Part shown: positions 11,743 through 57,507 of the stretch, one piece after another
How positions within the stretch are numbered: position 1 is the stretch's first letter
How the letters are laid out: each line of letters starts with the position of its first letter
Virus record (IMG/VR): IMGVR_UViG_3300025732_000024
Coordinates: 1 to 64,000 of that record
Source: a virus
DNA: 64,000 nt
Reading direction: 5' to 3' (one strand)
The notes under the pieces: model-generated
What the model was told of the DNA's origin: nothing
Databases searched by the model: none
What the model saw: only the letters and a program-made list of their open reading frames with translations
Made by a program: the position numbers and the translations under genes

Positions 11743-11763
11743 TTACATACCCACTGGAAATCT

Positions 11764-12009: not shown

Positions 12010-12026
12010 AGGCAAACTTGTTGTAG

Positions 12027-13217: not shown

Positions 13218-13619
13218 ATGAACATCTACTTCTTCTCCCGACACGAACCCCACCCCGAAATGATTGCAGACTTAGGTGCAATCACCCAGCAATTTACAGG
13301 AACAATTTCCAGTATTGTCCGCGATCGCAATACTATAAAATTCCTAGAGACCCCACTAGGTCAAACCGATGCAGTCAGTCACAGCATACCCTCTAACTGC
13401 ATCGTAGTGGCAGTTGCCCCGCTCCCACTACAAGAAGCATGGTTAAAGGCTGGTGCTACATTCCTCGTCCCTCAAAACAAGCGAGAAAAAGACCCTGATG
13501 GGCAATTTGTTTTTAGGTATTCAGGACTACTCAGAGTCCTAAAAATCGAAGTCATAACGGAACAATGGGCAGGTGCATCGCCCAGCTTGGAAGACAAGCA
13601 CCGAGAAAGAAGCGCGTAA
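13218..13619 (+). CDS. SRH-motif small Rossmann-fold protein (Csx16/Csx20-like candidate)
   Basis: N-terminal YFFSRH, central VVAVAPLPL...AGA; AAGGA Shine-Dalgarno. Confidence 0.5.
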   Translation: MNIYFFSRHEPHPEMIADLGAITQQFTGTISSIVRDRNTIKFLETPLGQTDAVSHSIPSNCIVVAVAPLPLQEAWLKAGATFLVPQNKREKDPDGQFVFRYSGLLRVLKIEVITEQWAGASPSLEDKHRERSA

Positions 13620-14585: not shown

Positions 14586-17500
14586 CTATCTACCGTAGGG
14601 ATTACCGCGATTAATTGAGCCACCAACTCGCATTTCCCGACGGATACCATCAGATACCATTGCCTGTACAGCCTGGGATAATCTGCGAGTATCAACCTCT
14701 GAATCACTGCCTACCGCCACACTTACAGGTACGTTAATAGTCGTTGTGTTCCCCATTCTAGAGGCAATAGCACCATTACCACCAGCACCAACAACGCCAC
14801 CGTTAGCAAATCCGGCAACGCCACCTTGCAACTTGTTCCAAATAGCAGTTTCTTTGTGATTCAACACACGCTCACCCTCAGATGCAATAATGACATGAGG
14901 TACTCGTCCGGTGAGCGATCGCTCTTTATTCAACGCCCCGACTATACCGCCGTTGGCAAAAGTTGGCAGTTCTCCCACCATGCCACCAGCGAAAGCCATA
15001 TTAAAAGAAGTATTGGGAAGCACATCGCCAACGAAAGAGCCGCCCGAAGCCAACCCCGCTCCCTTGCCACCAAACAGTCCTGCGACCCATCCAAACAAAG
15101 AGTCAGTCATTCGCTTAGATGCAATATCAGCCAAAGAATCAATGAGGTTTTTAGTGATGGAATTAAATAAATCGGCTAAAGATTCACCAAAGCTTTTTGT
15201 GCTTAATAAAAACTCTTTAAATCCATTCCTGAAGCCACTCGTGGTATTCTTGATGACAGAAGCTAACTCAGAAAATTGCAATTTAATTGCATCTAGTTTG
15301 TACTCATTTGTTAACCGCAGATTTTCACGCAGTTCATTAATCTGTTCATTGGTTAACTTGTTTGCTCCTGTGGCTTTTTCATTCTTTCTAATAAAATCAT
15401 CCAACTGAATACTAGCTTTAGCAAAATCAAATTGTTGATTAGTAATTGCCACTTGCTTATCTATCTTTTCTGCACGGAAATCAAGCCCATAAGCTTTGAG
15501 TACAGAACTTCTAGCCTCAAGCACGCCCTTAAAGGAATCCTGGATAAATTGCGACCTTTCTAATAGTTTATTTGCGTTGTTAGTTCTCTCGGTAATTTTT
15601 TCAGCTTCAAGTTTAAGCTGAATGTTTTCTTTAGTAATAGCGTTTTCTTGTTGAGCAAGGTTTCTTTGTTTTTTAGCATCTTCAGGTGAAATTTCTTTAG
15701 TCTTTTCCTGTCTTGAGATATTGTTTAATTTTTCTCTCAAATCAAGGTCAGCATTTAATAAAGCTATATTTGCCTCTAATTCCGCAGTTCTAGCAGACTT
15801 AGTATCAAGAGGGTCTAACTGCTGTAGTAGTTTACGTTGCTCAATTTGTTTTTGAAGTAAAGCGACTCCAGATTTTTCATTTTGTATTGCAATACCTGAT
15901 AATCTAAGCTGCTCATCAAAGCCAAACTTTCCTTTAAAAGCATCAAGTATCTTGGGAATACTTGCATCATAATCAGATAGCATTTTTTTGGCTTGCTGAT
16001 TTTGAAGTACAGCAATTTCAAATACCTTGTCATTTGCCTTAATTGCTTTAAGTGCTAATTCTGCTGTGGGGAATTTTTGTAAAGCAGACTCAAACGCCGC
16101 TTTTAACAGTGGCTTATTGTCTACAGTTCCCTGGGTATCACGGATAGTTTTTTCTAAAGATTCTCTCTTTTTCTCCAGGGATCTAACAAGTTCACCATAA
16201 GCAATATTAAACCTTTCTAAGCTACTTAACCCACTAGGAGATAATCCCTCTGCTATTGTTTTAACAAAATCCAAGTTTAAATCCTTCATGCCACTAAGGA
16301 CAGAAAACCCAGCCTCTTCAGTTTGTCTAAGAAGGCGATAAATACCTAGCAATTGCTGTAGTCCATCTGTCAGTCTTTGCGCTTCGTTGTTCATCTCATT
16401 GGTGCTGTTCCTAGTAGCTGCCGCACCAAGATTAAGATTAGCCGCATCTGTAACTAGTCCTTGTAACTTATCAGGGTTAACCGCTCCGCCTGCCATTACA
16501 ATTTGGTTTAATTTTCCAAGGTTTTGTTGATAAAATTTCAAGAAATTGTCGTGCTTACCTTGAGGCGTACCTTGCCCAGAATACGCACTACGTTTATTAC
16601 CTAATCCAATACTTGCGTAGTGAGGGGCTAACTTATTGAGAACAGAGCTATCAATTTTACCCGCTACAACATCATCTAAAACGCCCCGTTGTAGCAAAGA
16701 ACCGATGAAGTATAAATCCTGTAATCCTGGACTAAATCCGGGCTGGTCTTTGCCTTGAAAATCAATCAGTTTAAACATATCAGGCATCGCATCCTTGCCA
16801 AACTGTTTCTTAGCAGCTTGGATAGATGCGTTAAAGTTCATCATCTGGTAACGTCCAGACGCGGTACTAGAATTATTAATGCCAGGAATCCAAGTTGGTT
16901 TTCTACCAGTTCCTACAAACGGATGTGTCGAGAAATCTTTAACATTTGCGCCACCAATCAGCATCCCGTAGCCGAAATTCTCAGAGTTCTTCCTAAAGTC
17001 TGTTCCTTCTGCCCGTGCCACAGCATTAGCTAAGGCTAAAACATTGGGATTCCTACGTAACTCATACAACTTTTTACCTAGTGGAGTCAGTTTTGCGTAT
17101 TCCTCCGCACTAAGGTCGTTACCACCCTGAGTGATTCTAGATGTACCGGGAATAGATTTATTAGATGACTGTGCAACTTTTCCAGTAATTACTTTAGCAA
17201 CTTCTACAGCCCCGACCGCCTGGTCAAAAACGATGTTTTTTATGCCACTGGTTTTGAGTGCTTGCTTGAATTTATTAAACTCAGCTTCGTTAGCAAAAAC
17301 AATGCAACCACTAGATCCAGGGTCAATCAGCCTATCCTTATCAATGTGGAAACCTATAGCTGTTCGTTCTGTTTCAAAGTTAGGTTCAATCCGTATTAAT
17401 TCATTGCCCATTTTCTTTTTGTTGCCAGCCGGGACTGTTTTGCCAAGCGTGTAACTACCAAACTCAAATGGACGTTTAGACCCTGCTTTCGTTTCGCCCG

Positions 17501-20500
17501 CACCGCCGAATATTTGTGTTCTGGGATTGCCAGAATTGACGATAAAACTATCAATAAGTTTACCTCGTTTGATGACAGCTAGCTGTAGTTTTTCAAGTCC
17601 GTATTCATCTTTTTCTCCCAATCTTTGAATTCTCACCAGAGACTCACCTTTGTTGGCATTTTGCACGGTTGCACCTGATTTTACCTTAGAGGTTGCTGGT
17701 GGTTGATTAGCGATCGCGCCGTAATTACCTCTTGCGAGATTGCTCAAAAATACTTGTGGGTTAATGTAGCGACCATTTGCCTTAACTCCAAAGTCCAAAT
17801 GGTCTCCCAGTACGTTTCCTAGCTTTTGTCCGGCTTGAACTTGTACTGATTTTTCTAGCGCACCACCTAATGCTTTTTTGATACTTTCAACAGACAAATG
17901 TCCATACTCTATGGTGATTTTCGTTCCTGATGGTAATACGCTGTTAACAAACACAGCACCATCATTGCCTTCCCATAGCTTTCCTGTGGCTACACCGGGC
18001 AGACTAGCAAGGATTTCCGCACCTGCACCAGCTTTAGCCCGACTATCAAAATCAACTTTACTGTGAATCCTACCTTTAGGGCGACTCCCCATGACGCTTT
18101 GCCCAAAGGTAGGTTTGTAGTTAATCAGGTCTTGAATAGTTGTATTTTTAACTGGTGATGCGAAATTAGTGGCTGGCGATGGTGCTGATGGAATTGTTGG
18201 TGCAGTGCCTGGTGTTGCATTGTCCATTTGCCCTAATATATCTAACGCTCCAGCAGCCCAATTAGGTGCATTCTGTGGAGACAAATCATTTGTTCCTACC
18301 TTTAGGCTATCCAAGGTAGAGGTTAATTTATCCAAAGTTGTGTCTAATTTAGTTCCTACCTCAGCAACGGTAGTACCCAGTCCTTGGAAAGCATCATTGA
18401 GTTGGTTGGTGGCTAATACGGCATCTTGCCCCAAGGATGTAACGACTTGCTGCACATCAGTGTTTATGCCTATAACGCTACCTTGGACTATCTTCAACTG
18501 CTCATCAAAATCTTTAATTTTATTCTCGTCAAAGGGAACTATCTTGCCGGGCAAGCTGCGTTGCAATTCACTGGCACGCAGTTTGATGTCATCTACATTA
18601 TTTTGATAATCATATTGTTGTTTCTTCTCATCCAATCGCTTTTTCTCCATATCAGTAGTTTGAGAAATGATATTAATAATTCCCTCAATAAACTGAGTGT
18701 AAATATTGTCGCCTGCACCTATCAATGCGGCTCTTAATTTGTTTTGCAGTTGAGAACCTTCTAGTGTTTTTTTAGCTTTCTCAAACTCAATACTTGCGCC
18801 TTGCGCTTCCCTGACCGAGGTTCTGTAATATTCAGCAACTTGCTTAGTTTGGTCAATCAAAGCTTGCTTCATATCACGTCGGGCTTTGGCAGTCTCTAGG
18901 GCATTTTGAGTTAATGATTCACGGTCTTTCATTATGTCTTCAGTCAACTTATCGTATTCTGATTGCGCTTCAGCTAAGTTAGTGCCACCCACTGCAATTA
19001 CCTGGGCTATCTTATCAAGAGCAGCCTGATTAGTTTTAAGTTTTTCCTCTAATAAAGTTCGGGAATCATTTAATCCTGCAAGTTGAATGTTTGCTAATTC
19101 AGGTGCTATTTGTTGTGATGTTCCCGCACTTGAATAGACTTTAGATTGACTTAAATTAGACTTGGATCTATTGGCGGAAGAGGCTCTTTCAAACTTAATG
19201 TTTGCATCTTTAACAGCGTTTGTCGCTTGAGTGTAGAGCATTTCTTCTACTGGTTTTACGTCAAATGGCTTGACTCCTGCTATTTGTTTTTTAAGTTCCT
19301 CAATTTGTCTCTGAGTCTCTTGAACAGCAGGAGTAATTAATGCCCCTTGAATACCTTCAACTTCTCCTAAAGTTAATTGTTCTTTATATTTTTCCAGGTT
19401 TTTAAGTTGTTTTTCAAGTATAGGCAATGGTGAGCCAAAACTATCAACTAATTCTTGCCGTCTTTTGTAGAGTTGTTGAATTAATTGCTTGACTTCGCCT
19501 TGTTCTTTGCGAACTTTATCGCTAGGTAATGCTTTGCTTAATTCCACTCCTTTTTTAGTGGCATTAATTAGCTGCTTGTCAACGTTTTTTATCTCTTGAA
19601 AATTGAATGCCCGTTGCACAGAAGCTTTGATTAGTTTTTGCTGATTCTTTTTCTGAGCCTCTAAAACTTTTAGCTCATCTTCAAGTTTAATTGTACCTGC
19701 GTCAGAACCGTCACCCATGCTTAATGCAAAAGCATCAGTGGAAGATGCAGCCATGAGATTTCTAGATGCAGAAACAGCCGCCCTTCTCTTATTAACCTCT
19801 GCCTGTTTCTTTTTAATTTTCTCATCAAGTTCTTTATCTATTCGCTGATTTCCTGGAGTATTACCTATTTGAAATTCAGCAGCAGCTAAAGCTACGGCAT
19901 TTCTCATCTGTTTAGATTTGTTTTCTAGCTCTTTAAACCCAGGTGAGTTTTGTAAATCTTTAATTTCTTGGGGACTAGCACCACTGTTTTTCTTGTCTGC
20001 TATGGCCGCTAGTCTTCTTTTGTTATTGTCTTTAATTTCCTGATTAAGCTTAGATATCGCTGGGGTATTATTAAACGTATTTTGCTGTTCCCCTGTCAAT
20101 GGTTTTATATCAGCCATAAAGTCGCCAGGCTTACCCGTAAAACCTTGACTAGCACCAAATTCTTTTAAGTTCTGAATATTCTTCTTCTGGTCTTCAAAAT
20201 ATTTTAGGATTTGTTGCTGGGCATTGGTTAAACGCGCGTTTTCCCCAAGGTCAAAATAACCTTCTAATTTATTATCTGCGATTAGTTGCTTTTGCTTCCC
20301 TGTCAGTTTAGGAGCAAACAAATCAAGAGCTTTTGTAGCGAGAACTATGGCAGCAATAAAACCACCTATTGAAACGACAATAAGTCCAAGCGGACTCATT
20401 ATAGCGGTAATCAATGGAGTTACCGCCATAGCAAGTCTACCAAAAATAGAAACGGGGGCAGTCGGACCTGCTATAAGAGCCTTGTTTGCGGCTATGGTTG

Positions 20501-23500
20501 CAGCCGTGGATACAGCAGAATTTAGAATTGAACTTAGAACTGATATCCCAGAAGCAAAAGCCGCACCCGCACCAGCAGCCCCCAAAGCACCAACTCCCAC
20601 CGCATCCATGAGAGAGCCGCTTGCAGAATCGCGTTTATTCCTCTCTTTAATTGCATCATCCCACTTAAAGTCGCCACCGCCCCAAAAGCTTCTGATATCC
20701 AGTTGTATGCCTTTAGAGGGTAATGTATCCGCTAACGTACCACCTAGCTTAGTGACACTATTTGTAGCTTTATCAAAGGAATCGGCAGTTTTTTGAACAT
20801 TAGCCCGTATTTCAGTTAGTCCATTGTTTAATTCCTTGGTAGTTTTTGACAACGAATCACCCATGGGATTACTGAAGTCACCTTTAGAGAACATCAAAAT
20901 ACCAAAAGCTACAGCCACATGAGTTAATGCTGTTCGCAAAAATCCCATGGTTGCAGAAAATATTTTTATTCTCGCTTCACTAGCAGCCATAGCAGAACTC
21001 ATAGAGGTCATCATTAGTTCAGCAGCGATTTTCATTGAAGTCATGACGCCCACAAAAGCTTTAGCTGCGCCGCCAAACATTCCTGTGACTGCACCTATGA
21101 ACCCTTTAAATGCAGGAGCCAAGGCCATGACCATTAGTGCTGTACCCTGCTCAAACATGAAGACCATCGCCAGTAATTCTACAAAACCGGGAGGAATAAT
21201 CTTAAAGAATCCAGAAAATACACCTTTAAGCCAATCAATAATATTACCAGCCTGTTCTGCACCTTGAACCAAACCACCAAACACTGACGAGAAACTAAAG
21301 TTACCATCACTCATCGAGCGCATCACTGAGTCAACCGTACTAAATGTGGCTACAATTGCATTCGTGACACCATCCATCATGTTTGCGATTAGGTCTTTTT
21401 CTGCACCCAGCCAATTATCAGCCACGTCCGCAGTTACACCGATAATCATCGGCATCATATTGGTGGCAACGGCTGTAAAGGTTGCCATTAGAAGGTTCTG
21501 CAACGAACCAAACAACACAACCAAGGGTTTTACCTTAGTCATAATCGTAGTTAGTCCAATGGCTATGGTTGCCGCAAAACCAATGGCAAATGCTTGTCCT
21601 AAAGGTATCAACGCGCCAAGTGTATTACTGAACAACGCCAAACCGTCCGCAAACGTGCCAACAAACCAGCCTAAAGTGCTACCAAGTTTGTCAGTAAATA
21701 TTGTTGTAATTTCAAAACCAACATTACCCAATTTATTCAGAGCTACAACCAAGCCTCCAGCTTGATTAGCAGCAGATGCACCATAATCTTGATTCAGGAC
21801 TTTAGCTACATTAGGCAAGACATCTTGAGATAAAACGCTACCAGATGCTACTAATGCATTCATTTCAGGAACAGACACGCCCATAGACTTAGCAAATACA
21901 CCCATGGCAGGCGGGAATTTCTCACCTAATTGCTGCCTTAGTTCTTCCATTGACAGCTTACCTTTTGCCAAGATTTGTGTATATGCCATGAATACCAAAC
22001 TAGCATCTTGCCCACTAATGCCTAATGCACTTAAAGATGCCGTAATACCCTCAAACAAATCCTTGACACCCTGTCCTTCCATCTTGCTACCTCTAGCCGC
22101 AATAGCTAATTGAGAGTAGGAGTTGGCAGCAACTTCAGAAGGGACATTCATTTTGGTGGCTACGTCTTTAGCATACTTAAATTCCGCTTCACCACCAGCC
22201 TTTGAACCACCCAAGAAAGTAAAGCGCCGCTGTAAAACTTCTACTCGCTGGATACCATCTAGCATCTTGGATATGTGAGGCATCACCATACTCACAGCCG
22301 CACCTATACCACCAATAATCGGAGCTAAGGGTAAGAATAGGGGCGATAGAGAAGCAAACAAAGTTGTCACGGGGGCTAAAGTTGTGGCAATAGAACCCAT
22401 GAATTGCAGCATATTGGGGAACATCTCATCGGCTTCTTTGGGATTGCTAAATAGAGCTTTTTTCACTCCTGCTCCCATCTGATTGTACATTTCCTTGAAC
22501 TGATCCTGGGTAGCAATTGTACCGCGAGTCATTCTTCTGAAAATCAAGCCGACAGCATCGCCAAAGTTAGCTTGTCCTATTGCTTTCTTAGCGTTGTATT
22601 CTAAATCATCCTTGGCATTGGCAAGATTACGGACAGAATCTTTAAATCCTTGCGCTAACGCCTTGCCCATATCAAAGCCTTTTTCCTTAAACTTAGCTTG
22701 TAATCCGGTTAGGGTAGCCATTAGTCCGGCTGTGGCTGTGTTTAAAAGTTTAGGGTCTATATTCTGGAGTTGCTCCGACGACATCCCAGCTTTTCTCAAG
22801 CCTTGCATCAACAAGCCTTTCAGTGCTTCCTGATCATTGGTTGCATAAGCTTGTGTAAGTCTGCCAACAACTCCGGTAGTATTAGGATTAGCAGCTAAAT
22901 CACGGCGTGTTTCCTCTAGTTTTCCCGACTGCTTCATAGAGGTGTAATCCGAGAAAGTTACACCGCGCTCTTTTAATACCTTGGCTGTCAGGTAATCTAG
23001 TCGCCTTTGCGCCCTGGGAACACCAAGCTTAAACCTGGAGCGTTCAATATCACCCATTGCAAACATGAGGTTTCGTTCATTTTCAGAGATTGCAAGGGGT
23101 TTACCGATAATATCTTGCCGTGCCTTCTCCAGTTCCTCTCTTGACATGGCTTCACGAGTAGTAGTATCAACGCCACGTCTTCTTAATGCGGCTTTAGTTA
23201 ATGCATCTAATCTCTCTGGTGATATTGTTCCAGACTTCATAGCACGCTCTAAGGCTTTTTCTGTCTTACTTCTTTGTACACCAATAGAACTAATAGCATC
23301 TGCTATTTTCCCTGATTGCTTGTTGATACTACGTCCTGTCATTCCTTGAATTACAGAAGTAGGAATCATGGGGATATTGAGATTTTCTAAAACACTATCT
23401 ACCGCAGTGTTACCTAAATTTTCAATCAATTCTCTACTAGCTTGACCGCCTTTTGCATTGGACAATCCCGCTTTTTTCCTATTAGCTAAAGTCTGTTCTT

Positions 23501-26500
23501 GCAGGACTCTTTCAACAGTAGGTGCTTGATTCTTGGGGTTAGATCGTGTAGATGGGTCTAGTCCTAAAAGTCCACTAAAGGTATTCATGAATGGACCGAA
23601 TAACCCCATGGCAAGAGAAAGGGGACCACCAATACCCGCAGTACCTATAACATTAGGCACAGGATTCATTATTTTAGAAATTGCGTCCAATATTCCGTGA
23701 GATTTTCCACCAGATAGAGAGGTTAGGTTAATCCTAGTAACAGAACTTAATAGCTTTGTTAAAAACCCACCTGGCTTTAAAACATCATTATTGAGTAGAT
23801 TCTTAATAATAGAATTACCTAATCCTAACGTTAATCCCCCAATTATGGGCATCAATGGCTTCAGCATGGGGATTAGCTGCATTGTTTTAGGAATAAACTT
23901 CATAAACCAAGGCAATGCAGATCGAGCTTGAGATAGCAATCCTTTGTAAAGCGGTTGTTTTAACGTATCAGCAAGGGAGAATAGGGCGGCGTTTACAGCA
24001 TTACGCATTACCTGACCTAGTGAAGCATAGCCAGACAATGTACTTTGCCGAATACTATCACCAACTGCGGTAAATAAATTGGTGACTAAGTCCTTACCTA
24101 GTTGTAAGTATTGATTCGTTGCGTTTTGTGGCGTACGAACTCTTATTGGTAAAAATCCGTCTGCGGGTGGTGGTGGTGTTGGGGCAAAGGGAGAAGGAGT
24201 GACAGCGGGAGGTTTGGCTGGTGATGCAGGTATGGGGAAGAATCCAAGTCCAGTAGGTAAACTAGGTTTGATTGTAGTAGATTTAAAGGGTTTAGGAACA
24301 AGAGATGCGGGGACTGTTGGTGGTAAAACAACGGGAAGTCTCGCACCTACTTGTCGAGTGAGCGATCGCACTACAGGAGAGCGCGGCGCGTTCATAAGGT
24401 CATCCAGGACAGTTGCAAAACCAGTCAAACTTGCAGTCATGTTCCTGTTGAGCAGAGCATTTAGGTTGACCAGCAAGTCTTTATTTTTATTAATCAACGC
24501 TTGTGCGTTGACTTCTTGTTGTGTAATAGTTGCCCTTGTCGCAATGCTAGGTCTGGATGGTAATATCAGTTGCGCGTCTGGATTTGGGGTAGCACTGTTT
24601 GGCAACACTAACCGTGCATCTGGATTTGAATTAACACTAGACGACAATACTAACCGTGCATTTGGGTTAGGCGCGAAACTGCGGGGCGTAATTATTGGGC
24701 TAACAGGCTGTGGTACAGCATTTTCCGTAACAGGTGAAGATTTTACATCCCTTTTTGCTTGCTGTAAAATTCCTGGTATTTCTGCCCTAGAAGCTCCAGT
24801 AATTCTAGCCATAACTTTACCAAATGTCGTGCTACTTGCTAAAATTTCCATTGCCTCAAAGGCGTTTAAGTCATTATATTTACCTCCTCTAAACCCTTTG
24901 GCAATCCTTTGATTTTGAGATTCTACTGTAGTGGCGAAATGTTCAGCTTTAGCTTTTTCTGATTCCGTCGCTGTAGCACTTTCATTGACAGTTTTAAGTA
25001 TTAACTCAGCAATTCTTTTATTGGCCAAAACCAAAGCTGCAACCGCACCATTTTCAAAGCCTTCGCCAAAATCCAATCCGATAGACTCCATTACCTTTGA
25101 TGGTGATGCAATCCCAAATACTTTTTTGACTGCGCCTAAAACACCCTTAGCAAAACCAATTACTATCCCCAATACACCGCCGTTAGCAGATAAAAAGCCT
25201 TGCCCAAAAGAAGAGATTAAATTAATACCTACCTCTTTAAGCCCACCACCCTTACTAAATGCAGACTTAGCATTGTTGAATAGATTCCCTAAGAGGTTAT
25301 TATTTCCCGTTGGCTGCTGGGATTCTTGCCCGTTGCCTAAAACGTATTCTTGGATTTTGGGATGATTTAAGAATTGCCCAAAATTACCTTTAGATGCAAT
25401 ATAAGGATTTGCTGCCAAATCTGTTAAATCGTCCAAACCCTTTCTGTCTAAGCGGTGTGTCTGAATATATGGATTGCCACCGATTAATTCAGAATGAACT
25501 GAATGCCCTAATTGAAAATCATTGCCAGACTGTGTATTAAGAAAAGAAAAAAGCTCACGCCCTGTTTTTTTGTTGTATTTAGTAAATGCCTTGGTGTTAC
25601 CAAATAAATTCTCTTCAATGCCTAATAAGCCTCGTAGCCATTTCTTTGACTCCAAAAATTTATATATCTTACTGCCTAAATTTTTAGGTAACTTAAACGG
25701 TGTATTTTTATCCGTATCGGTGTCTTGATGCCAGTCGTAGACATCGTTAATTTGCAAACCTCCGTCTTTGGTTTGTGTGTAATTGAATCCCCCTAGTGTA
25801 TGAGCCAGCGTGGGCAATGTCTTGTGTTTAACCATGCCCACCACGCCACCGTCAGGAAAATAACCATCACCTTTTTCGGCTGATTGCATCATATTGAAAA
25901 TAGTTGCAATTTCAGCCTCTCTAGCCAATTGTGGATTCAGCTTATGAACCTGGGTTGTACCTTGATAAAATGCCCCTAAATGCCTCAAGGGTGTTCGGAT
26001 TGATTTTGGAACTAAATTAGTGTCTGCAACACCCATCATCGCAGTCCCTAGAATCATTCCTGGGATTGTCGCTTTACTTGCTTTCTTAGCATTATCAAAA
26101 ACTTTTTTTGTAGTTTCTGAATTACTAGATACGGCATTTTTAATTGCCTGATCGTAAGATTCTATTCCTTCTGATGGTATTGATTTGATATTTTTTAAAC
26201 CATTGCCAACAACATCAGTCAGTAAGTCACTAGCACCGGAAACATCAACTACACCTTTTTTGATTCCAATAGCCAATCCCGATGCAATCATCAACCCTAA
26301 CGCAATCATTACTTTAGATGGTGATTGAATTTCCATCTTGGCTTTAACAGTCTTGATCAAGTCATCCAGCATAGCGCGGGCAGCATCGGATACACCACCA
26401 GCAGCGTGTTGAATACCTTTCTTTAGTCCTGCATCTACTTCTATACCCAGACTTTCCGCTTGGGCGACATAGCCTTTTAATTGCTGGTCAAACAGTTTTT

Positions 26501-28670
26501 TGTCTGCAAGGTTTAGCTTACCCAGAAAACCTTTCTCTGCACTGCGTGTATTCTTGGAAATACTAGACTTACCACTGCTATGAATCCTAGATAATTCACT
26601 GTTAATATCTTTGCTAAAACCCGCATCTTCTCCAGTTTTTACATATCTATCAATGGTAGAAATTGCTTCTTTTGACCTGGATACAAAATTAGAAACCTCA
26701 GACCTTGCAGCACTGATATCCTCTTTTGTACCAGCATCACTGATGGCATATTTAACCTTTGCCTGAATCCTCTTGTACTCATCGCTGAAATATTTGTTTA
26801 TTGCTATCAGCGACTGTTCAATACTATCCAAGGAAACCTGAGCAGATTTCTTGGTATTTTTAGACGATGGAATAAAAGGTAATGGTGTTAAATCATTTTC
26901 TGATTTTGTGGCGTTTTTATAGCCTTCAGATATATCAATATTTTTATGTATTTCAGATTGAATTGTTTTAAATAATGGCTTAATTTGCTCAGGAATATTT
27001 ACAGGAATAGGCTCTAATTCCCGTTTTTGTTGAGGTGGTGGCAATGGAGATTTGTTTGCTTTAGGTGGCAGTTGCTTAGGTATGGGTGCCGCATCTTGCC
27101 AAGGGTCTGAGATTGTTTTAGCAACAAAAGGTTTACTGGTTTTTGCCGTAGGCTCTGTTGACTTGACACTAACAGCAGCATCGCTCAACGCTTTAGCCGC
27201 ATTTTTTAAATCTGATGCGGCTTCCTTGAGAATATCTGAAGAAGATTTAGCGATTGGTTCTACTGGTTTTGCCGACACTCCAGTCTTTAGAAAATCTTTA
27301 ATAACTGGAGAAGCATTAGGCAATAATCTATTAAAAATAGACTCTACTGCTTTTTTTGATTGTGAAGCTATCCCTTCTCCAATATATTTATTAACTGCAC
27401 CTTTATCGCTACTTTCAGCAGCATCGAAGAATCCACTAATAGCATTTTGAACCCCAGGTGCAGAATTTTGAGTGACCGCTTTAGCGGATTGTCTGGCTTG
27501 TCTAATGGTTGCTAATTTAGCATTTTGAGCAACGCTTTCAATAGTGACATTAATGCTGTCAGAGAACGCCTTGTTTATCTCCGAAAATGTACTAGAAATA
27601 ACTCCGGAATTACTTTGTTTTATTGAACTACCAGAATATTCCTTAATAGCATCCTCAATGATTGCCTTAACCCTAGCCTGCTCATTTTTGGGGTCTGATT
27701 GTGCTTTTCTGCCAACTCCAAAATATCTTAACGCGCTGCTACTAGCTATCCTACTAGCACTTTCAAAGTCTACACCTATATCATCACTAGCGGCACTCCT
27801 GGTGGCTCTTCTACCCCTAGTGCCTTTTTCTACCCTACTATCATGAGTTCTAATAAACGCATCCATTCCATCTTTGAAAATAGCCTCAATGCGCTTCTGT
27901 TCATTCTTAGGGTCTGATTGTGCTTTTTTGCCAACTCCAAAATACCGTAAAAGCATATTTCCAGACATTCTAGTCATGTCATCCATGCTTACACCAATAG
28001 TATCCTCAATGCTGCTATTGATACCTTTAGTCAGTCTTTTCCCCACATTCTCGAAAGCACCATCAATAATGGAACGCATGGGACTAGCAACCACATCTAC
28101 CCGTTGAGCTTTACTAGAAGATGCGCTGTCTTTTTGTGCTTGCTGTTGAGATGATGCAACGGAAGACTCACTTACAGCATCTCTAACAGCACTTTGAACA
28201 GCATCGGTTAAGCTCTTTTCTAACTGTTTGCTTAACTCAGATTCAACGGTAATAGTAATAGTTTTATTTGATAATTTCCCTAATCTTTCTTCTAGTTCAT
28301 CTAGTTTAGTAACATCAGTATTAACAACAATAGGATTACTATTAAAATATTTATTAACCTCTTTAAGGTGTTGTACTTTGAGGTTTAAATGTTTGTTTAA
28401 ATCAACTAAACTATCGTCGTCAACGTTAACAACAATAGGATTATTACTGAAATATTTATTAACCTCTTTAAGGTGTTGTACCTTGAGATTCAAATGTTTG
28501 TTTAAATCAACCAAGTTATCATCATCTACATTAATTTCTAAATTGATTTTCTCAAAACTTTTTTCAATAGAACTTGCAGCTTCATAGGCTTTCTTTTTAG
28601 CCTGCTCTAAAGATTTTTCTAATTGTGCAGTATCAGCACACAATTCAACAACTAATTCACCTAAATTCAT
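14586..28670 (-). CDS. Giant tape measure protein with M23 peptidase, L,D-transpeptidase-like and lysozyme domains
   Basis: MNLGELVVEL start, SPSKVM motifs, tape-measure domain AKGKLSMEELRQQLGE, C-terminal FA.GG/SEGERVL. Located after the tail chaperones. Confidence 0.92.
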   Translation of the reverse strand: MNLGELVVELCADTAQLEKSLEQAKKKAYEAASSIEKSFEKINLEINVDDDNLVDLNKHLNLKVQHLKEVNKYFSNNPIVVNVDDDSLVDLNKHLNLKVQHLKEVNKYFNSNPIVVNTDVTKLDELEERLGKLSNKTITITVESELSKQLEKSLTDAVQSAVRDAVSESSVASSQQQAQKDSASSSKAQRVDVVASPMRSIIDGAFENVGKRLTKGINSSIEDTIGVSMDDMTRMSGNMLLRYFGVGKKAQSDPKNEQKRIEAIFKDGMDAFIRTHDSRVEKGTRGRRATRSAASDDIGVDFESASRIASSSALRYFGVGRKAQSDPKNEQARVKAIIEDAIKEYSGSSIKQSNSGVISSTFSEINKAFSDSINVTIESVAQNAKLATIRQARQSAKAVTQNSAPGVQNAISGFFDAAESSDKGAVNKYIGEGIASQSKKAVESIFNRLLPNASPVIKDFLKTGVSAKPVEPIAKSSSDILKEAASDLKNAAKALSDAAVSVKSTEPTAKTSKPFVAKTISDPWQDAAPIPKQLPPKANKSPLPPPQQKRELEPIPVNIPEQIKPLFKTIQSEIHKNIDISEGYKNATKSENDLTPLPFIPSSKNTKKSAQVSLDSIEQSLIAINKYFSDEYKRIQAKVKYAISDAGTKEDISAARSEVSNFVSRSKEAISTIDRYVKTGEDAGFSKDINSELSRIHSSGKSSISKNTRSAEKGFLGKLNLADKKLFDQQLKGYVAQAESLGIEVDAGLKKGIQHAAGGVSDAARAMLDDLIKTVKAKMEIQSPSKVMIALGLMIASGLAIGIKKGVVDVSGASDLLTDVVGNGLKNIKSIPSEGIESYDQAIKNAVSSNSETTKKVFDNAKKASKATIPGMILGTAMMGVADTNLVPKSIRTPLRHLGAFYQGTTQVHKLNPQLAREAEIATIFNMMQSAEKGDGYFPDGGVVGMVKHKTLPTLAHTLGGFNYTQTKDGGLQINDVYDWHQDTDTDKNTPFKLPKNLGSKIYKFLESKKWLRGLLGIEENLFGNTKAFTKYNKKTGRELFSFLNTQSGNDFQLGHSVHSELIGGNPYIQTHRLDRKGLDDLTDLAANPYIASKGNFGQFLNHPKIQEYVLGNGQESQQPTGNNNLLGNLFNNAKSAFSKGGGLKEVGINLISSFGQGFLSANGGVLGIVIGFAKGVLGAVKKVFGIASPSKVMESIGLDFGEGFENGAVAALVLANKRIAELILKTVNESATATESEKAKAEHFATTVESQNQRIAKGFRGGKYNDLNAFEAMEILASSTTFGKVMARITGASRAEIPGILQQAKRDVKSSPVTENAVPQPVSPIITPRSFAPNPNARLVLSSSVNSNPDARLVLPNSATPNPDAQLILPSRPSIATRATITQQEVNAQALINKNKDLLVNLNALLNRNMTASLTGFATVLDDLMNAPRSPVVRSLTRQVGARLPVVLPPTVPASLVPKPFKSTTIKPSLPTGLGFFPIPASPAKPPAVTPSPFAPTPPPPADGFLPIRVRTPQNATNQYLQLGKDLVTNLFTAVGDSIRQSTLSGYASLGQVMRNAVNAALFSLADTLKQPLYKGLLSQARSALPWFMKFIPKTMQLIPMLKPLMPIIGGLTLGLGNSIIKNLLNNDVLKPGGFLTKLLSSVTRINLTSLSGGKSHGILDAISKIMNPVPNVIGTAGIGGPLSLAMGLFGPFMNTFSGLLGLDPSTRSNPKNQAPTVERVLQEQTLANRKKAGLSNAKGGQASRELIENLGNTAVDSVLENLNIPMIPTSVIQGMTGRSINKQSGKIADAISSIGVQRSKTEKALERAMKSGTISPERLDALTKAALRRRGVDTTTREAMSREELEKARQDIIGKPLAISENERNLMFAMGDIERSRFKLGVPRAQRRLDYLTAKVLKERGVTFSDYTSMKQSGKLEETRRDLAANPNTTGVVGRLTQAYATNDQEALKGLLMQGLRKAGMSSEQLQNIDPKLLNTATAGLMATLTGLQAKFKEKGFDMGKALAQGFKDSVRNLANAKDDLEYNAKKAIGQANFGDAVGLIFRRMTRGTIATQDQFKEMYNQMGAGVKKALFSNPKEADEMFPNMLQFMGSIATTLAPVTTLFASLSPLFLPLAPIIGGIGAAVSMVMPHISKMLDGIQRVEVLQRRFTFLGGSKAGGEAEFKYAKDVATKMNVPSEVAANSYSQLAIAARGSKMEGQGVKDLFEGITASLSALGISGQDASLVFMAYTQILAKGKLSMEELRQQLGEKFPPAMGVFAKSMGVSVPEMNALVASGSVLSQDVLPNVAKVLNQDYGASAANQAGGLVVALNKLGNVGFEITTIFTDKLGSTLGWFVGTFADGLALFSNTLGALIPLGQAFAIGFAATIAIGLTTIMTKVKPLVVLFGSLQNLLMATFTAVATNMMPMIIGVTADVADNWLGAEKDLIANMMDGVTNAIVATFSTVDSVMRSMSDGNFSFSSVFGGLVQGAEQAGNIIDWLKGVFSGFFKIIPPGFVELLAMVFMFEQGTALMVMALAPAFKGFIGAVTGMFGGAAKAFVGVMTSMKIAAELMMTSMSSAMAASEARIKIFSATMGFLRTALTHVAVAFGILMFSKGDFSNPMGDSLSKTTKELNNGLTEIRANVQKTADSFDKATNSVTKLGGTLADTLPSKGIQLDIRSFWGGGDFKWDDAIKERNKRDSASGSLMDAVGVGALGAAGAGAAFASGISVLSSILNSAVSTAATIAANKALIAGPTAPVSIFGRLAMAVTPLITAIMSPLGLIVVSIGGFIAAIVLATKALDLFAPKLTGKQKQLIADNKLEGYFDLGENARLTNAQQQILKYFEDQKKNIQNLKEFGASQGFTGKPGDFMADIKPLTGEQQNTFNNTPAISKLNQEIKDNNKRRLAAIADKKNSGASPQEIKDLQNSPGFKELENKSKQMRNAVALAAAEFQIGNTPGNQRIDKELDEKIKKKQAEVNKRRAAVSASRNLMAASSTDAFALSMGDGSDAGTIKLEDELKVLEAQKKNQQKLIKASVQRAFNFQEIKNVDKQLINATKKGVELSKALPSDKVRKEQGEVKQLIQQLYKRRQELVDSFGSPLPILEKQLKNLEKYKEQLTLGEVEGIQGALITPAVQETQRQIEELKKQIAGVKPFDVKPVEEMLYTQATNAVKDANIKFERASSANRSKSNLSQSKVYSSAGTSQQIAPELANIQLAGLNDSRTLLEEKLKTNQAALDKIAQVIAVGGTNLAEAQSEYDKLTEDIMKDRESLTQNALETAKARRDMKQALIDQTKQVAEYYRTSVREAQGASIEFEKAKKTLEGSQLQNKLRAALIGAGDNIYTQFIEGIINIISQTTDMEKKRLDEKKQQYDYQNNVDDIKLRASELQRSLPGKIVPFDENKIKDFDEQLKIVQGSVIGINTDVQQVVTSLGQDAVLATNQLNDAFQGLGTTVAEVGTKLDTTLDKLTSTLDSLKVGTNDLSPQNAPNWAAGALDILGQMDNATPGTAPTIPSAPSPATNFASPVKNTTIQDLINYKPTFGQSVMGSRPKGRIHSKVDFDSRAKAGAGAEILASLPGVATGKLWEGNDGAVFVNSVLPSGTKITIEYGHLSVESIKKALGGALEKSVQVQAGQKLGNVLGDHLDFGVKANGRYINPQVFLSNLARGNYGAIANQPPATSKVKSGATVQNANKGESLVRIQRLGEKDEYGLEKLQLAVIKRGKLIDSFIVNSGNPRTQIFGGAGETKAGSKRPFEFGSYTLGKTVPAGNKKKMGNELIRIEPNFETERTAIGFHIDKDRLIDPGSSGCIVFANEAEFNKFKQALKTSGIKNIVFDQAVGAVEVAKVITGKVAQSSNKSIPGTSRITQGGNDLSAEEYAKLTPLGKKLYELRRNPNVLALANAVARAEGTDFRKNSENFGYGMLIGGANVKDFSTHPFVGTGRKPTWIPGINNSSTASGRYQMMNFNASIQAAKKQFGKDAMPDMFKLIDFQGKDQPGFSPGLQDLYFIGSLLQRGVLDDVVAGKIDSSVLNKLAPHYASIGLGNKRSAYSGQGTPQGKHDNFLKFYQQNLGKLNQIVMAGGAVNPDKLQGLVTDAANLNLGAAATRNSTNEMNNEAQRLTDGLQQLLGIYRLLRQTEEAGFSVLSGMKDLNLDFVKTIAEGLSPSGLSSLERFNIAYGELVRSLEKKRESLEKTIRDTQGTVDNKPLLKAAFESALQKFPTAELALKAIKANDKVFEIAVLQNQQAKKMLSDYDASIPKILDAFKGKFGFDEQLRLSGIAIQNEKSGVALLQKQIEQRKLLQQLDPLDTKSARTAELEANIALLNADLDLREKLNNISRQEKTKEISPEDAKKQRNLAQQENAITKENIQLKLEAEKITERTNNANKLLERSQFIQDSFKGVLEARSSVLKAYGLDFRAEKIDKQVAITNQQFDFAKASIQLDDFIRKNEKATGANKLTNEQINELRENLRLTNEYKLDAIKLQFSELASVIKNTTSGFRNGFKEFLLSTKSFGESLADLFNSITKNLIDSLADIASKRMTDSLFGWVAGLFGGKGAGLASGGSFVGDVLPNTSFNMAFAGGMVGELPTFANGGIVGALNKERSLTGRVPHVIIASEGERVLNHKETAIWNKLQGGVAGFANGGVVGAGGNGAIASRMGNTTTINVPVSVAVGSDSEVDTRRLSQAVQAMVSDGIRREMRVGGSINRGNPYGR
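28323..28535 (-). repeat. 105-bp (35-aa) tandem duplication at the tape measure N-terminus
   Basis: NVDDD(N/S)LVDLNKHLNLKVQHLKEVNKYFxxNPIVV occurs twice. Confidence 0.9.
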
Positions 28671-52466: not shown

Positions 52467-52775
52467 ATGCAAATCAAAATCACAGAAAAAAGCAGCTTTG
52501 CGCTGCTAGAAATTCTTGCGGACAATGGCAACCCTGCCAGCCCCCAAAATCCAGTAGACGAACAATCAGAACTGGCGAAAGCCAACTTCCCTGAAGCCAA
52601 CGGACAGTTGGCTGTCATTAGCGGAATGCCAGTCAGTGCAATCGCCTTGGTGGCGTTGCACTACAAAAACCTGTTCGGCGCAACTGCTGTCGCCAATCCC
52701 CGTCTTGGGGTGGCACTGGTGGTTCACTCCACCAACCCAGCCTACCCACTGGGTGCGTCAATCCCTTTGGGATAA
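52467..52775 (+). CDS. Csx3/Crn3-like cyclic-oligoadenylate-binding protein
   Basis: VISG.P...LH......AVANPRLG.A.VVHS matches the recalled Csx3 consensus VISGRGP...H..H...AVYDPRLG.AVVV.SH; similar length. Confidence 0.7.
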   Translation: MQIKITEKSSFALLEILADNGNPASPQNPVDEQSELAKANFPEANGQLAVISGMPVSAIALVALHYKNLFGATAVANPRLGVALVVHSTNPAYPLGASIPLG

Positions 52776-54488: not shown

Positions 54489-54580
54489 AAGAAACCCCTG
54501 GTCAACGACTGGGGATTTTTTATTTTAAAAATATTTTATTTTACTAGTTGACATTGTAGAGAAATTATTCTATAGTGTTA
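54489..54580 (+). promoter_or_regulatory. Terminator plus promoter module, copy 2 (promoter of ribozyme operon 2)
   Basis: Near-identical to 52903-52992; TTGACA at 54548, TATAGT at 54571. Confidence 0.8.
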
Positions 54581-54607
54581 AACATGAGACAAAAGGAGAT
54601 AAAGAGT

Positions 54608-55024
54608 ATGACTTTTGTAAAACCAGTAATTGCAAATAAAACAGTTAAAAAATACGATAAGGTTCTCTTTGGAAGCGGTTCAAGCCGCCCCTACAGTCCA
54701 TATACCCTACTTAGTGACGTAACTGTCACTACAAAAGATACAAGGTCTACAGGAAGTGTGAGCTTCCATATTTCTGGCACGTTGCCAGATGGTAGAACAA
54801 TACAAACAGAAGGATTTTTGTACAAGAAAGGGCGCAGTCCTTGGAAGTTCAGCGGTGCTGGTCTAGCACCATTGGAATATTCCGGTGGTATGTTAAGTCA
54901 CTGCCAGGATGCAGTGCATTTTATGTTTGACCCTGGAGAATGGGATAGGTCTTATCGCTACAAATTCCCTGAAACGCTTGTAACGGATACATGGTCTGCC
55001 AAGCAGACGTGGCAAGAATGGTAA
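54608..55024 (+). CDS. Hypothetical protein (first gene of ribozyme operon 2)
   Basis: AAGGAG Shine-Dalgarno; stop codon abuts HH4. Confidence 0.7.
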   Translation: MTFVKPVIANKTVKKYDKVLFGSGSSRPYSPYTLLSDVTVTTKDTRSTGSVSFHISGTLPDGRTIQTEGFLYKKGRSPWKFSGAGLAPLEYSGGMLSHCQDAVHFMFDPGEWDRSYRYKFPETLVTDTWSAKQTWQEW

Positions 55025-55088
55025 GCCGAAACGGGAGCAATCCCGTCCGCACAGGATGACAACCTGCGCGCTGATGAGGCAAGTTAAC
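55025..55088 (+). ncRNA. Hammerhead ribozyme type II (HH4), predicted cleavage after C55047 (GUC)
   Basis: Open stem II GCC/GGC; GAAA; stem III CGGGA-gcaa-TCCCG; TC; stem I CGCACAGG/CCTGCGCG; CTGATGA. Loop I TGAC can pair with downstream GTTA. Confidence 0.9.
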
Positions 55089-55100
55089 AAAGGAGCAGGT

Positions 55101-55676
55101 ATGCGTACAATAGAATTAGCTAAAAAATTGAATTTAAAAGAAAACCAAGCAATCACTTGGTTGTCATTACCGGAATGGAAGCCTTATTTCAGGGTTAGCT
55201 TTGAGGAGAAATTAACTTCTTCATTGAGAAAGGAGATTAGCAAAAGGCTGTGGAAATATCATAGAGTTAGAAATCCCGTTAAGTTCAAGAAAATCCAAGG
55301 GGGGTTCCTTGGGACGGTAAACAATTTAATAGTTGAGGTGAATTTCTATGCTTATTACAAACCAAGCATAGAAGTCACGACAAAATACCCTTATTCAAAG
55401 GAAACAGAAACTGTTCCTGATGTCTGGATGCCTCAAGAATATTATCTACCAACCATTGACATTAGGGAATTTAATCCGACGGATTACTCTGATGTGGCGC
55501 ACCCGCTACACGAGTGGTTTGAACTAGGGGCATCGTTGGGGTATGGGGACGGGTTTTGGAATAGAGACCCTGATGAACCCCTTAATGATACTCCTGAATT
55601 CCCTACTAGGGAAGCTGAAACAGCTTACCGTGGAGGATATGAAAGAGGATTCACCAACGGGGTAATGGATGAATAA
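55101..55676 (+). CDS. Hypothetical protein between HH4 and HH5
   Basis: AAGGAG Shine-Dalgarno before ATG 55101; basic N-terminal half, acidic C-terminal half. Confidence 0.7.
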   Translation: MRTIELAKKLNLKENQAITWLSLPEWKPYFRVSFEEKLTSSLRKEISKRLWKYHRVRNPVKFKKIQGGFLGTVNNLIVEVNFYAYYKPSIEVTTKYPYSKETETVPDVWMPQEYYLPTIDIREFNPTDYSDVAHPLHEWFELGASLGYGDGFWNRDPDEPLNDTPEFPTREAETAYRGGYERGFTNGVMDE

Positions 55677-55738
55677 CCCACCTGATGAGTCCGGCTGGCG
55701 ACCGGACGAAACACTCCGATGAGTGTCGTGGGCAGCCG
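55677..55738 (+). ncRNA. Hammerhead ribozyme type I (HH5), predicted cleavage after C55727
   Basis: Matches HH1 apart from loop III (CGAT) and one base in the 3' tail. Confidence 0.95.
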
Positions 55739-55759: not shown

Positions 55760-56059
55760 ATGATTTATTCTGTTGGTTTTGATGAACAGGAATTGAGCAA
55801 GGTCAGCCTAGAAGCTAACAAACTCTTGTCCGGACAAGAACTTGTTTATGACAAAAAATTAATAACGTTCACCTCTTTTTCATCCTATGAAGGGGAGGAA
55901 GAGTGTGACAGAGAAGAGACCGACATCCTCTCTGGAGATACGGTGATTGTGTCCTGGTGGACTCCCTTTGCCTACATCGAAAGGATGAGGCAGGACAAAA
56001 TAAAAGTCATTGTTCTGGAAACAGAACACGGAGGTATTATCAGGGTAATTTCATCTTAG
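55760..56059 (+). CDS. Ribozyme-led acidic protein, paralog C
   Basis: GGAG Shine-Dalgarno, ATG 55760; MIYS...QEL, GD.VI and KV..LETE shared with paralogs A and B. Confidence 0.7.
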   Translation: MIYSVGFDEQELSKVSLEANKLLSGQELVYDKKLITFTSFSSYEGEEECDREETDILSGDTVIVSWWTPFAYIERMRQDKIKVIVLETEHGGIIRVISS

Positions 56060-56060
56060 T

Positions 56061-56122
56061 CCCACCTGATGAGTCCGGCTGGCAACCGGACGAAACACTC
56101 CGATGAGTGTCGTGGGCAGCCG
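56061..56122 (+). ncRNA. Hammerhead ribozyme type I (HH6), predicted cleavage after C56111
   Basis: Differs from HH5 only in loop II (CTGGCAA). Confidence 0.95.
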
Positions 56123-56144: not shown

Positions 56145-56176
56145 AAAAAACCCGTCAGAAATGACGGGTTTTTTAT
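56145..56176 (+). terminator. Rho-independent terminator of operon 2
   Basis: AAAAAACCCGTCA-gaaa-TGACGGGTTTTTT. Confidence 0.85.
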
Positions 56177-56489: not shown

Positions 56490-57005
56490 TCACGCTATTC
56501 TCAAAAAAGTATCTAGCGTTTTTGGCGGCACGGGTAAGTGGGATGAGAACTCCAGATTGTATTTTTTTGCCCATCGCCTCAAGGTTTTAATAGTGGGAGA
56601 TTTGCCAATTTGACGACACAACCACGCAGGAACTTCCGAACCTTTGATGCCCTCAATGGCAATTCCGTCGCCCAATGCTTTATCAAGTTCCGTCTTCAAT
56701 ACCGGACTTGAATTTAACCGCTTAACAATTTGAGGTAAAGTCACCCCTGTGTTGCACCCTACTGGTCTTTTAGTTCCGTTTTCTCTCTTCTGCTCAAAGC
56801 GGATATATGCCAGCATCATCAGCCATTGACAATGAGTTTTGCTGATAATCGGCTCTTCTCCTTTCTTTAATTTACGAAAGTCGGGAACTTGACAAATCTG
56901 CTTGTATTTCCGCCAAGTGCGATCGCTTATCGGGTCATTGTAAATATGAGCGCAAGCAGCCCACACCCAGCGTTCCGGATATCCTTGGGGTTCATTATTT
57001 TTCAT
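56490..57005 (-). CDS. Putative DNA-binding protein (two MerR/HTH-like units)
   Basis: PISDRTWRKY and PTIKTLRRW motifs. Confidence 0.5.
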   Translation of the reverse strand: MKNNEPQGYPERWVWAACAHIYNDPISDRTWRKYKQICQVPDFRKLKKGEEPIISKTHCQWLMMLAYIRFEQKRENGTKRPVGCNTGVTLPQIVKRLNSSPVLKTELDKALGDGIAIEGIKGSEVPAWLCRQIGKSPTIKTLRRWAKKYNLEFSSHLPVPPKTLDTFLRIA

Positions 57006-57507
57006 TTCTCCACTCCTTCGCATTAATAAAATTAATATTGGCCGCTACTGCCGCTTGTCTGTCCTCTTCCCTATCTCCCACCATCAAATACTCGTGTCCA
57101 GGATACAAACTAATCCCAAAATTCAACATTCCTGGATTAGGTTTTCTAAAGTTGCCAAAATCTTCCCAGCGATTTGATAGTAGTGGACTCTGTCCGACTT
57201 CCCTGGCAAATTTAGATAGTCGGTAAAAAGTTTCACCTCCATCGGTGCAGAAGAAAATCATTAACATCTTAGGGATTAAATCAAGGGTGATTTTCTGTTC
57301 TGTAAAACAATCTTCAAGGGACTTAAACCCTGCTTTCACGCCACCTTGATTGGTGACACCAATGATTTTGTAATCGTGATAGCGAGCGATCGCATCTTCA
57401 ACTCCAGGAATCATCTCCTGGTCATAGGGGTCATTGATGAACGTCGCCCCTGACTTACTGCGGCGCACCGTTCCGTCCAAATCCAAAAACAATACTTTAC
57501 TGCTCAT
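56995..57507 (-). CDS. HAD-IIIA phosphatase (polynucleotide 3'-phosphatase/GmhB-like)
   Basis: DLDGT, TNQGGV, RKPNPGM, MVGDREED. Confidence 0.88.
   Translation of the reverse strand: MSSKVLFLDLDGTVRRSKSGATFINDPYDQEMIPGVEDAIARYHDYKIIGVTNQGGVKAGFKSLEDCFTEQKITLDLIPKMLMIFFCTDGGETFYRLSKFAREVGQSPLLSNRWEDFGNFRKPNPGMLNFGISLYPGHEYLMVGDREEDRQAAVAANINFINAKEWRNEK

Follow-up and report, generated by a model that had tools for sequence, protein, structure and literature searches.

A pseudoknotted type II hammerhead motif directly behind a stop codon in a phage operon that also carries type I hammerheads

The element described here, HH4, is a type II hammerhead ribozyme motif in a 64,000-nucleotide stretch of viral DNA, referred to below as the window. 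With its 3′ tail it occupies positions 55025–55088 (+ strand), as placed by Rfam (RF02276), the minimum-energy fold, a descriptor and covariation. The window corresponds to the first 64 kb of a virus record that is complete at 95,304 bp and has direct terminal repeats (IMGVR_UViG_3300025732_000024). By DNA and protein similarity the phage stands near Aphanizomenon phage vB_AphaS-CL131 (CL131), to which it is related, and the Cylindrospermopsis phages, so its host is probably a filamentous cyanobacterium. The ribozyme set of the genome comprises five type I hammerheads and one of type II (HH4), spread over two operons. The operon that holds HH4 reads promoter, gene A, HH4, gene B, HH5 (type I), gene C, HH6 (type I), terminator; the three hammerheads flank genes B and C, an arrangement of at least two same-strand hammerheads around single genes in a phage context.

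The operon opens with a predicted sigma-70-type promoter at 54548–54576 (+; TTGACA, 17 nucleotides (nt), TATAGT; 11 of 12 matches in a consensus scan), which is preceded by a terminator-like hairpin at 54496–54514. Gene A (54608–55024, +; 138 amino acids (aa)) ends with TAA at 55022–55024 and probably starts at ATG 54608, behind AAGGAG at 54594–54599; the frame extends upstream to GTG 54575, and a further ATG, at 54584, is close to the point at which transcription from the predicted promoter would begin. Gene A gave no Pfam or PHROG match. Its 138-aa form was found letter for letter in the Atlas, and it is 93 % identical in the relative G001. Gene B (55101–55676, +; 191 aa) belongs to no known family, and its structure model (predicted local distance difference test (pLDDT) 68) gave no Foldseek match. 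Gene C (55760–56059, +; 99 aa) was placed by sequence comparison in a family of small proteins termed 'MIYS', which also occurs behind hammerheads of the first operon and of relatives. Taken together, genes A, B and C and the first-operon genes gave no Pfam or PHROG family and no usable Atlas match. HH5 (55677–55732, +; Rfam RF00163, 24.6 bits, and our own descriptor) and HH6 (56061–56116, +; Rfam and our own descriptor) have predicted cleavage sites after C55727 and C56111, respectively; no gene follows HH6. The operon closes with a bidirectional intrinsic terminator at 56145–56175 (A-run, CCCGTCA-GAAA-TGACGGG, T-run), at which terminator-like Rfam near-matches were obtained on both strands. 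No terminator-like site between the predicted promoter and this terminator ranks above chance, and on these consensus predictions HH4, HH5 and HH6 may lie on one transcript.

HH4 starts on the first base after the stop codon of gene A with the 3′ strand of stem II (GCC, 55025–55027), which pairs with the 5′ strand GGC at 55078–55080 in the sequence and in the minimum-energy fold. The core nucleotides G12-A13-A14 follow (55028–55030; sequence and Rfam alignment), and then the stem III hairpin (55031–55046), in which ACGGGA (55031–55036) is paired with UCCCGU (55041–55046) around a GCAA loop and which is closed by A15.1–U16.1. C17 of the GUC triplet is C55047, and by core numbering cleavage is predicted between 55047 and 55048. 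The stem I hairpin (55048–55070; 55048–55055 with 55063–55070, from sequence and minimum-energy fold) has eight positions, one of them an A·C mismatch, and its strands CGCACAGG and CCUGCGCG enclose the loop AUGACAA (55056–55062). The core CUGAUGA (C3–A9, 55071–55077), the GGC strand of stem II and a 3′ tail (AAGUUAAC, 55081–55088) complete the element, behind which the Shine–Dalgarno sequence AAGGAG of gene B (55090–55095, +) stands 5 nt before the ATG at 55101. The invariant hammerhead nucleotides are all in place (C3 U4 G5 A6 N7 G8 A9, G12 A13 A14, A15.1–U16.1, and H17, which is not G), as are the standard pairs adjacent to the core: G55078–C55027 (10.1–11.1), C55048–G55070 (1.1–2.1) and A55031–U55046 (15.1–16.1). 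Read from 5′ to 3′, a stem II strand is followed by GAAA, the stem III hairpin, C17, the stem I hairpin, CUGAUGA and the other stem II strand, which is the type II arrangement: loops cap stems I and III, and stem II opens to the flanks.

At the Rfam gathering thresholds no match was obtained in the window; the hammerheads surface in Rfam only under an E-value threshold. The search with the Hammerhead_II model that the earlier note on this DNA had proposed then matched 55024–55088 over the full model with 31.2 bits, under the curated gathering score of 37 bits (E = 0.024 when the full window is compared with all 4227 families; 8.2e-6 for this family alone on the genome). Clear relatives from the HH4 clade also score under 37 bits (26.6–36.7 bits in Rfam), and the gathering threshold serves as an operational cut-off and does not define a structural feature. 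The minimum-energy fold of 55020–55095 is exactly the hammerhead three-way junction with all three helices. A strict type II descriptor gave one match in the 95,304-bp genome and none in 200 dinucleotide-preserving shuffles, both strands being searched. An open stem II of 3–4 bp is typical across the 129 phage type II matches listed. Two of the four viral matches to the pattern CTGAYGAGGCAAGTTAA (L127 and L129; L numbers denote loci on other contigs) lie inside coding sequence and were discarded as chance.

HH4 is thus confirmed as a genuine type II hammerhead motif. The order of parts, the minimum-energy fold and the Rfam match agree on the topology that the earlier note, made from the sequence alone, had assigned to 55025–55088; its statements that the element begins on the base after the TAA and is followed by a Shine–Dalgarno sequence and an ATG hold as well, and its coordinates and predicted cleavage site after C55047 are correct by core numbering.

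Relatives of HH4 were sought by using a lineage pattern in which the core, stem II, four stem III pairs and the first two tail bases were fixed, and stem I, loop I and the remaining tail were left free. Viral and metagenome contigs yielded 23 further distinct members (24 including HH4). With the downstream protein as probe no related loci were recovered from viral contigs; the relatives were obtained by DNA patterns. All eight pairs of stem I are altered on both sides across the 24-member alignment. Paired cells amount to 93 %, against 26–40 % with the partners slid; for stem I the covariation score reaches 0.52, compared with 0.16 for shuffles and 0.04–0.10 when slid. The A·C position of HH4 is G–C in L162 and U·G in L101. 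Because the search pattern fixed stem II and most of stem III, these carry no information on covariation; the innermost pair of stem III (55036–55041) covaries (AU 14, CG 5, GC 5), the other five pairs being pattern-fixed.

The alignment also holds a fourth helix that was overlooked in the earlier note, a pseudoknot of loop I bases 2–5 with bases 3–6 of the tail after stem II. In HH4 it joins UGAC (55057–55060), placed by its register and by covariation in relatives, to GUUA (55083–55086), placed by covariation; the homology to G001 ends one base beyond, at 55087. Three of the four pairs are altered on both sides and 81.5 % of the cells are paired, with same-register variants such as UAAC/GUUA, UGGC/GCCA, UGAUC/GAUCA, AUUAC/GUAAU, UUAGG/CCUAA and CCGCG/CGCGG. 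The core variant CUGACGA, a substitution at the variable position 7, occurs in G001 and in a further relative, G002; it is the only difference between HH4 of the window and that of G001.

The three type I hammerheads of the first operon lie at 11224–11279, 11681–11736 and 12027–12082 (+; Rfam and our own descriptor), and all five type I copies of the genome are on the + strand directly after stop codons. Their stems (I, CCCAC/GUGGG; II, GUCCGG/CCGGAC; III, CACUC/GAGUG) have no sequence in common with those of HH4; as the earlier note had said, all three stems differ. The type I lineage (window 11224–12082, relatives L167–L170) covaries strongly, with the variants GUCCGG/CCGGAC, GGGAGG/CCUCCC and GGACGG/CCGUCC in stem II and CACUC/GAGUG, CUACC/GGUAG and UUACC/GGUAA in stem III. 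It mostly sits 5′ of paralogues of the MIYS protein family (about 100–120 aa). No twister, twister-sister, pistol, hatchet or HDV-like ribozyme and no other class was found, either in the window and the remainder of the genome or in the relatives that were examined. Where the earlier note had spoken of two independent ribozyme families, there are two lineages of different topology; they are not two classes, both being hammerheads.

The position of HH4 was compared with that of phage type II hammerheads in general. A looser type II pattern gave at least 120 viral loci in IMG/VR (L007–L126), with about 5 estimated by chance, and placement was evaluated for the 118 distinct other type II ribozymes with enough upstream sequence among the matches listed. 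An open reading frame (ORF; at least 60 codons) ends at most 40 nt upstream in 104 of these 118, against 19 % for random positions, and a start codon lies within 120 nt in 113, at a median of 26 nt after the core. In 95 of the 118 the stop codon is separated from GAAA by 1–9 nt and so touches or overlaps the stem II strand; these distances show a sharp peak, with a mode of 3 nt, the distance found in HH4. Since so many of the listed elements share it, there is nothing peculiar about the placement of HH4 at a stop codon; phage type II hammerheads are as a rule placed in this way. Several of the listed IMG/VR contigs hold two to three type II copies. By our own descriptors (0 matches in shuffles) no type I or III hammerhead was found on the same strand in any of the 119 other type II-bearing locus strands listed. 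The mixture of types I and II recurs in this cyanophage clade (G001, L142, L146, L162), and mixed arrays look uncommon among phage loci.

Homologous junctions were then compared among the related phages. In G001, a 65-kb relative (L006/L128), 96 % identity to the operon extends as far as 55087, one base past the pseudoknot tail. From there gene B is replaced by an unrelated gene of 75 aa (window 55088–55664 versus L006:4514–4741), and the two sequences are homologous again from 55665 onwards, 12 nt ahead of the type I hammerhead HH5. Gene B and its 75-aa replacement share the same end, ATGGATGAATAA. The first operon has the same pattern of gene replacement, together with a copy-number difference of the hammerhead-plus-gene unit. 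The G001 counterpart of HH6 (L006:5139–5196) carries two changes that break stem II and scores 12.1 bits, versus 24–27 for the others; it looks like a decaying copy.

Elsewhere in the clade, L146 reads gene A, a second HH4-like ribozyme with another stem I, an extra gene, HH4, gene B, type I, gene C; L142 reads HH4, gene B, type I, gene, type I; and in L160 a type II hammerhead and a gene precede an HH4 variant, stem I of which is remodelled, behind which come gene B, a ribozyme-free spacer of 73 nt, a gene C-like gene and a further type II hammerhead. Homologues of gene B (51–88 % identical) follow HH4-type ribozymes in L142, L146 and L160/L154, and in L156 the HH4-like ribozyme is about 490 nt farther from the gene B homologue, on its upstream side. 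Members of the HH4 lineage are placed between other gene pairs in L146, L142, L160, L156 and G002, and the two flanks of HH4 vary independently of each other among the relatives. Behind gene C stands a type I hammerhead in the window and a type II hammerhead in L160.

In nine of nine related loci a hammerhead is also found one to three genes upstream of a block formed by a 2H-type phosphoesterase and a 133-aa partner; it is of type I in the window, G001 and L166–L170 and of type II in CL131 and G002, the G002 copy belonging to the HH4 lineage. The CL131 hammerhead is unannotated and lies at L136:4261–4329 (+), which is 97349–97417 on the complementary strand of MG209611.1 (36.2 bits). The annotated start of gp126 in CL131 falls inside this hammerhead; translation probably begins instead at ATG L136:4336, behind GGAGG. 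Three otherwise dissimilar small genes behind hammerheads (window 12109–12405, L006:4526–4753 and L136:4336–4569) begin with M(N)KALERP; the hammerhead before them is of type I in the window and of type II in G001 and CL131. Only the first 8–10 residues and a weak stretch match (E 0.008 to 1e-4), and a relationship between the three genes is probable at most. Their common start suggests that the 5′ edge of the cassette is shared, or exchanged along with the ribozyme. Homologous junctions carry either hammerhead topology and, in one case, none. The earlier note had raised the question of whether orthologous junctions carry other ribozyme classes; other hammerhead forms were found there, and other classes were not.

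From motif, conservation and position, HH4 is probably a self-cleaving type II ribozyme, held by its pseudoknot, that splits a shared message into separate mRNAs for the individual cistrons. A single message would run from the promoter at about 54548 to the terminator at about 56150, across genes A, B and C and the three hammerheads. Once the 3′ half (CUGAUGA-GGC-tail) had been transcribed the RNA would fold, the active fold being held by the 4-bp pseudoknot between loop I (55057–55060) and the tail (55083–55086), and would be cut co-transcriptionally between C55047 and C55048. By analogy with established hammerhead chemistry, the gene A message would keep its stop codon and, 23 nt beyond it, end in the stem III hairpin, bearing a 2′,3′-cyclic phosphate; the gene B message would begin with a 5′-hydroxyl on the stem I hairpin and pseudoknot, followed by an unpaired Shine–Dalgarno sequence and the ATG 53 nt downstream. 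Each cistron would then be its own message with structured ends, and its stability and translation would likely be independent of its neighbours, which would suit an operon with genes swapped as cassettes between related phages. A type I hammerhead would split differently, leaving nearly the whole ribozyme on the upstream product and a short unstructured leader on the downstream message, so the two forms may give different end protection.

Several observations weigh against this explanation. The Rfam score of HH4 is under the gathering threshold (31.2 versus 37). Its fold energy is unremarkable for its composition (z = −1.5, 76 nt), and in a 201-nt context (z = −1.45) the 3-bp stem II is exchanged for other pairings, stems I and III being kept; little weight was placed on the fold energies because the folding program cannot model the pseudoknot. 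The pseudoknot of HH4 has only four pairs, one of them G·U, and the relative G002 has a U·U or a bulge in this helix. At the junction of gene B and the gene C-like gene in L160 (L160:6493–6565) the 73-nt spacer has no hammerhead core and no Rfam match, only a small hairpin (ACGAC...GUCGU). The biological role of such ribozymes is still regarded as unsettled (PMC6765202), and the benefit of separating the cistrons is likewise a presumed one. Some of these points would suit an inactive relic or a chance look-alike without function at the RNA level, namely the sub-threshold score and the unremarkable z-score, to which the A·C mismatch in stem I, the stem II of only 3 bp and the seemingly decaying last hammerhead of the G001 operon may be added. 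That HH4 is such a relic is nevertheless highly improbable: the descriptor found nothing in 200 shuffled genomes, the invariant core and the covarying stems and pseudoknot are kept over 24 members, HH4 is conserved where its neighbouring genes are not, and a stem II of 2–4 bp is normal for the type II family (PMC3088659).

A rather doubtful account, compatible with cleavage of the message and not excluding it, is that the hammerheads are mainly junction modules of exchangeable cassettes, which offer 60–80 nt of homology for swaps or travel with the gene behind them, cleavage being secondary or a part of mobility. It draws on the replacement between the window and G001, which starts one base past the pseudoknot tail of HH4 and ends 12 nt before HH5, on the same pattern and the copy-number difference in the first operon, on the HH4-like-plus-gene unit inserted between gene A and HH4 in L146, on the independent variation of each flank of HH4, and on the MKALERP codons common to unrelated genes behind hammerheads. 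A possible route would be excised or circular RNA units, for example the gene C unit between two type I copies; however, no spliced or circular products were found from prophage arrays when they were sought (PMC3088659), and the phage has no RNA ligase or RtcB gene. Recombination homology would not need the intact core and the compensatory stem changes that are kept, and the presence of different forms at homologous junctions argues that selection acts on activity and not on a single sequence. The earlier note had held that cleavage between these genes is selected for and is not just a by-product of repeat duplication; covariation, the variety of gene pairs and the swap of types I and II support this. 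Since the homologous junction in L160 is without a ribozyme, cleavage at this position is not obligatory everywhere, and hitch-hiking of ribozymes with exchangeable cassettes is compatible with the data as an alternative to such selection. Less probable again, and distinctly unlikely, is conditional cleavage, in which a ribosome terminating on the TAA at 55022–55024 would cover GCC-GAAA-stem III and block folding, so that HH4 would be a sensor that cuts only if gene A is untranslated. The stop codon does abut the stem II strand directly, as it abuts or overlaps it in the same 95 of 118 listed phage elements with their sharp peak at 3 nt, and regulated cleavage has been proposed for phage hammerheads (PMC3088659). 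Genome compaction and keeping the stop codon on the 5′ product would explain the tight spacing equally well, though; type I copies are equally near stop codons despite their other order of parts, and no alternative, mutually exclusive structure was evident in the folds.

Two genes for RNA-end enzymes lie in or beside the two hammerhead operons, and their substrates are the kind of ends that hammerheads make. The 2H-type phosphoesterase (12747–13175, +; 142 aa; Pfam PF08302, tRNA_lig_CPD, 27.6 bits; HxT and HxS motifs) shares 64 % identity with CL131 gp125, and 2′,3′-cyclic phosphate ends are its substrate class; further 2H phosphoesterase genes were found in relatives (L136:4472–4927, L135:842–1207 on the − strand, and L165–L171). 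For its partner (13218–13619; pLDDT 88) the best structural matches (Foldseek E 0.035, Z 5.0) represent a generic alpha/beta arrangement. The other is a HAD-type 3′-phosphatase of the polynucleotide kinase (PNK) type (56995–57507, −; 170 aa; PF08645, E 3.5e-8), an orthologue of CL131 gp120, which converges on the HH4–HH6 operon at the shared terminator. No RNA ligase, RtcB or P-loop kinase domain was found in the phage, so a complete heal-and-seal pathway is not encoded. PF08302 was absent from all 50 other hammerhead-bearing viral records, a weak test as the control genomes were equally silent; a general link between hammerheads and 2H phosphodiesterases was set aside and the association was treated as synteny specific to the clade. 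The missing ligase and kinase and the absence of PF08302 elsewhere both count against a functional link. It is a speculative and improbable extension that, in this clade of Nostocales cyanophages, hammerheads of either topology are interchangeable modules that delimit cassettes and feed cyclic-phosphate ends to the end-healing enzymes of the phage itself; if it were true, this would be an expression system of ribozymes plus RNA-end healing, not just anti-defence RNA repair genes nearby. Two further ORFs of the window may be recorded. The first (52467–52775, +; 102 aa) belongs to a small operon that lies immediately before the hammerhead region, and Pfam matched it weakly to Csx3 (19.3 bits against a cut-off of 21; E 0.001); the second is a single frame of 4694 aa at 14586–28670 (−).

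Natural type II hammerheads with a pseudoknot, of four or more pairs in most members, were described by Perreault et al. in 2011, and the pseudoknot was found to be critical for fast cleavage (PMC3088659). HH4 resembles these RF02276 elements in its core, order of parts, short stem II, pseudoknot of loop I with the tail and phage setting; it differs in its score of 31.2 bits (below 37), in a pseudoknot at the short end of the range and in being known from sequence alone. Clusters of type I, II or III hammerheads around single variable prophage genes have been known from the same work, in which it was proposed that long phage transcripts are cut into single-gene messages; three prophage arrays were cleaved in vitro and one in E. 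coli (PMC3088659). The arrays of Agrobacterium tumefaciens (the ardA triple), Clostridium scindens and Azorhizobium caulinodans share with the present operon the same-strand hammerheads that bracket single variable genes (PMC3088659). Unlike those arrays, which cleave, the present one is a cyanophage array read from sequence, with type II mixed with an unrelated type I lineage. The reasoning of the earlier note has a published precedent for twister and hammerhead: if motifs without relationship turn up at the same sites, it is cleavage itself that is needed (PMC6765202). Like the hammerhead, twister, twister-sister, pistol and hatchet ribozymes located near the same bacterial and phage genes (PMC6765202), the hammerheads here are unrelated motifs in equivalent positions; unlike them, only hammerheads occur, and the alternation is between topologies and lineages of one class.

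Type II hammerheads, their pseudoknot, prophage clusters, the idea of message processing and the argument for cleavage as such are therefore already known. What is new here is modest: the operon of mixed form, the interchange of forms at homologous junctions and the replacement breakpoint at the end of the ribozyme, the last two of which are additions to the picture given by the prophage arrays, and the unannotated hammerhead in a cultured cyanophage. In RiboJ-type synthetic insulators a type III hammerhead from a satellite RNA, placed before the ribosome-binding site, strips the upstream context and leaves a 5′ hairpin. HH4 differs from these in being natural, of type II and pseudoknotted, and it would also shape the 3′ end of the upstream message.

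In this clade equivalent junctions are served by hammerheads of two unrelated lineages that differ in topology, and related phages swap the forms. CL131 is a cultured phage with a type II hammerhead in a syntenic operon, which makes the question open to experiment. The swap of forms and the position of the breakpoint fit the view that the cut itself is selected, and they also fit the view of these ribozymes as context-insulating joints between exchangeable phage genes.

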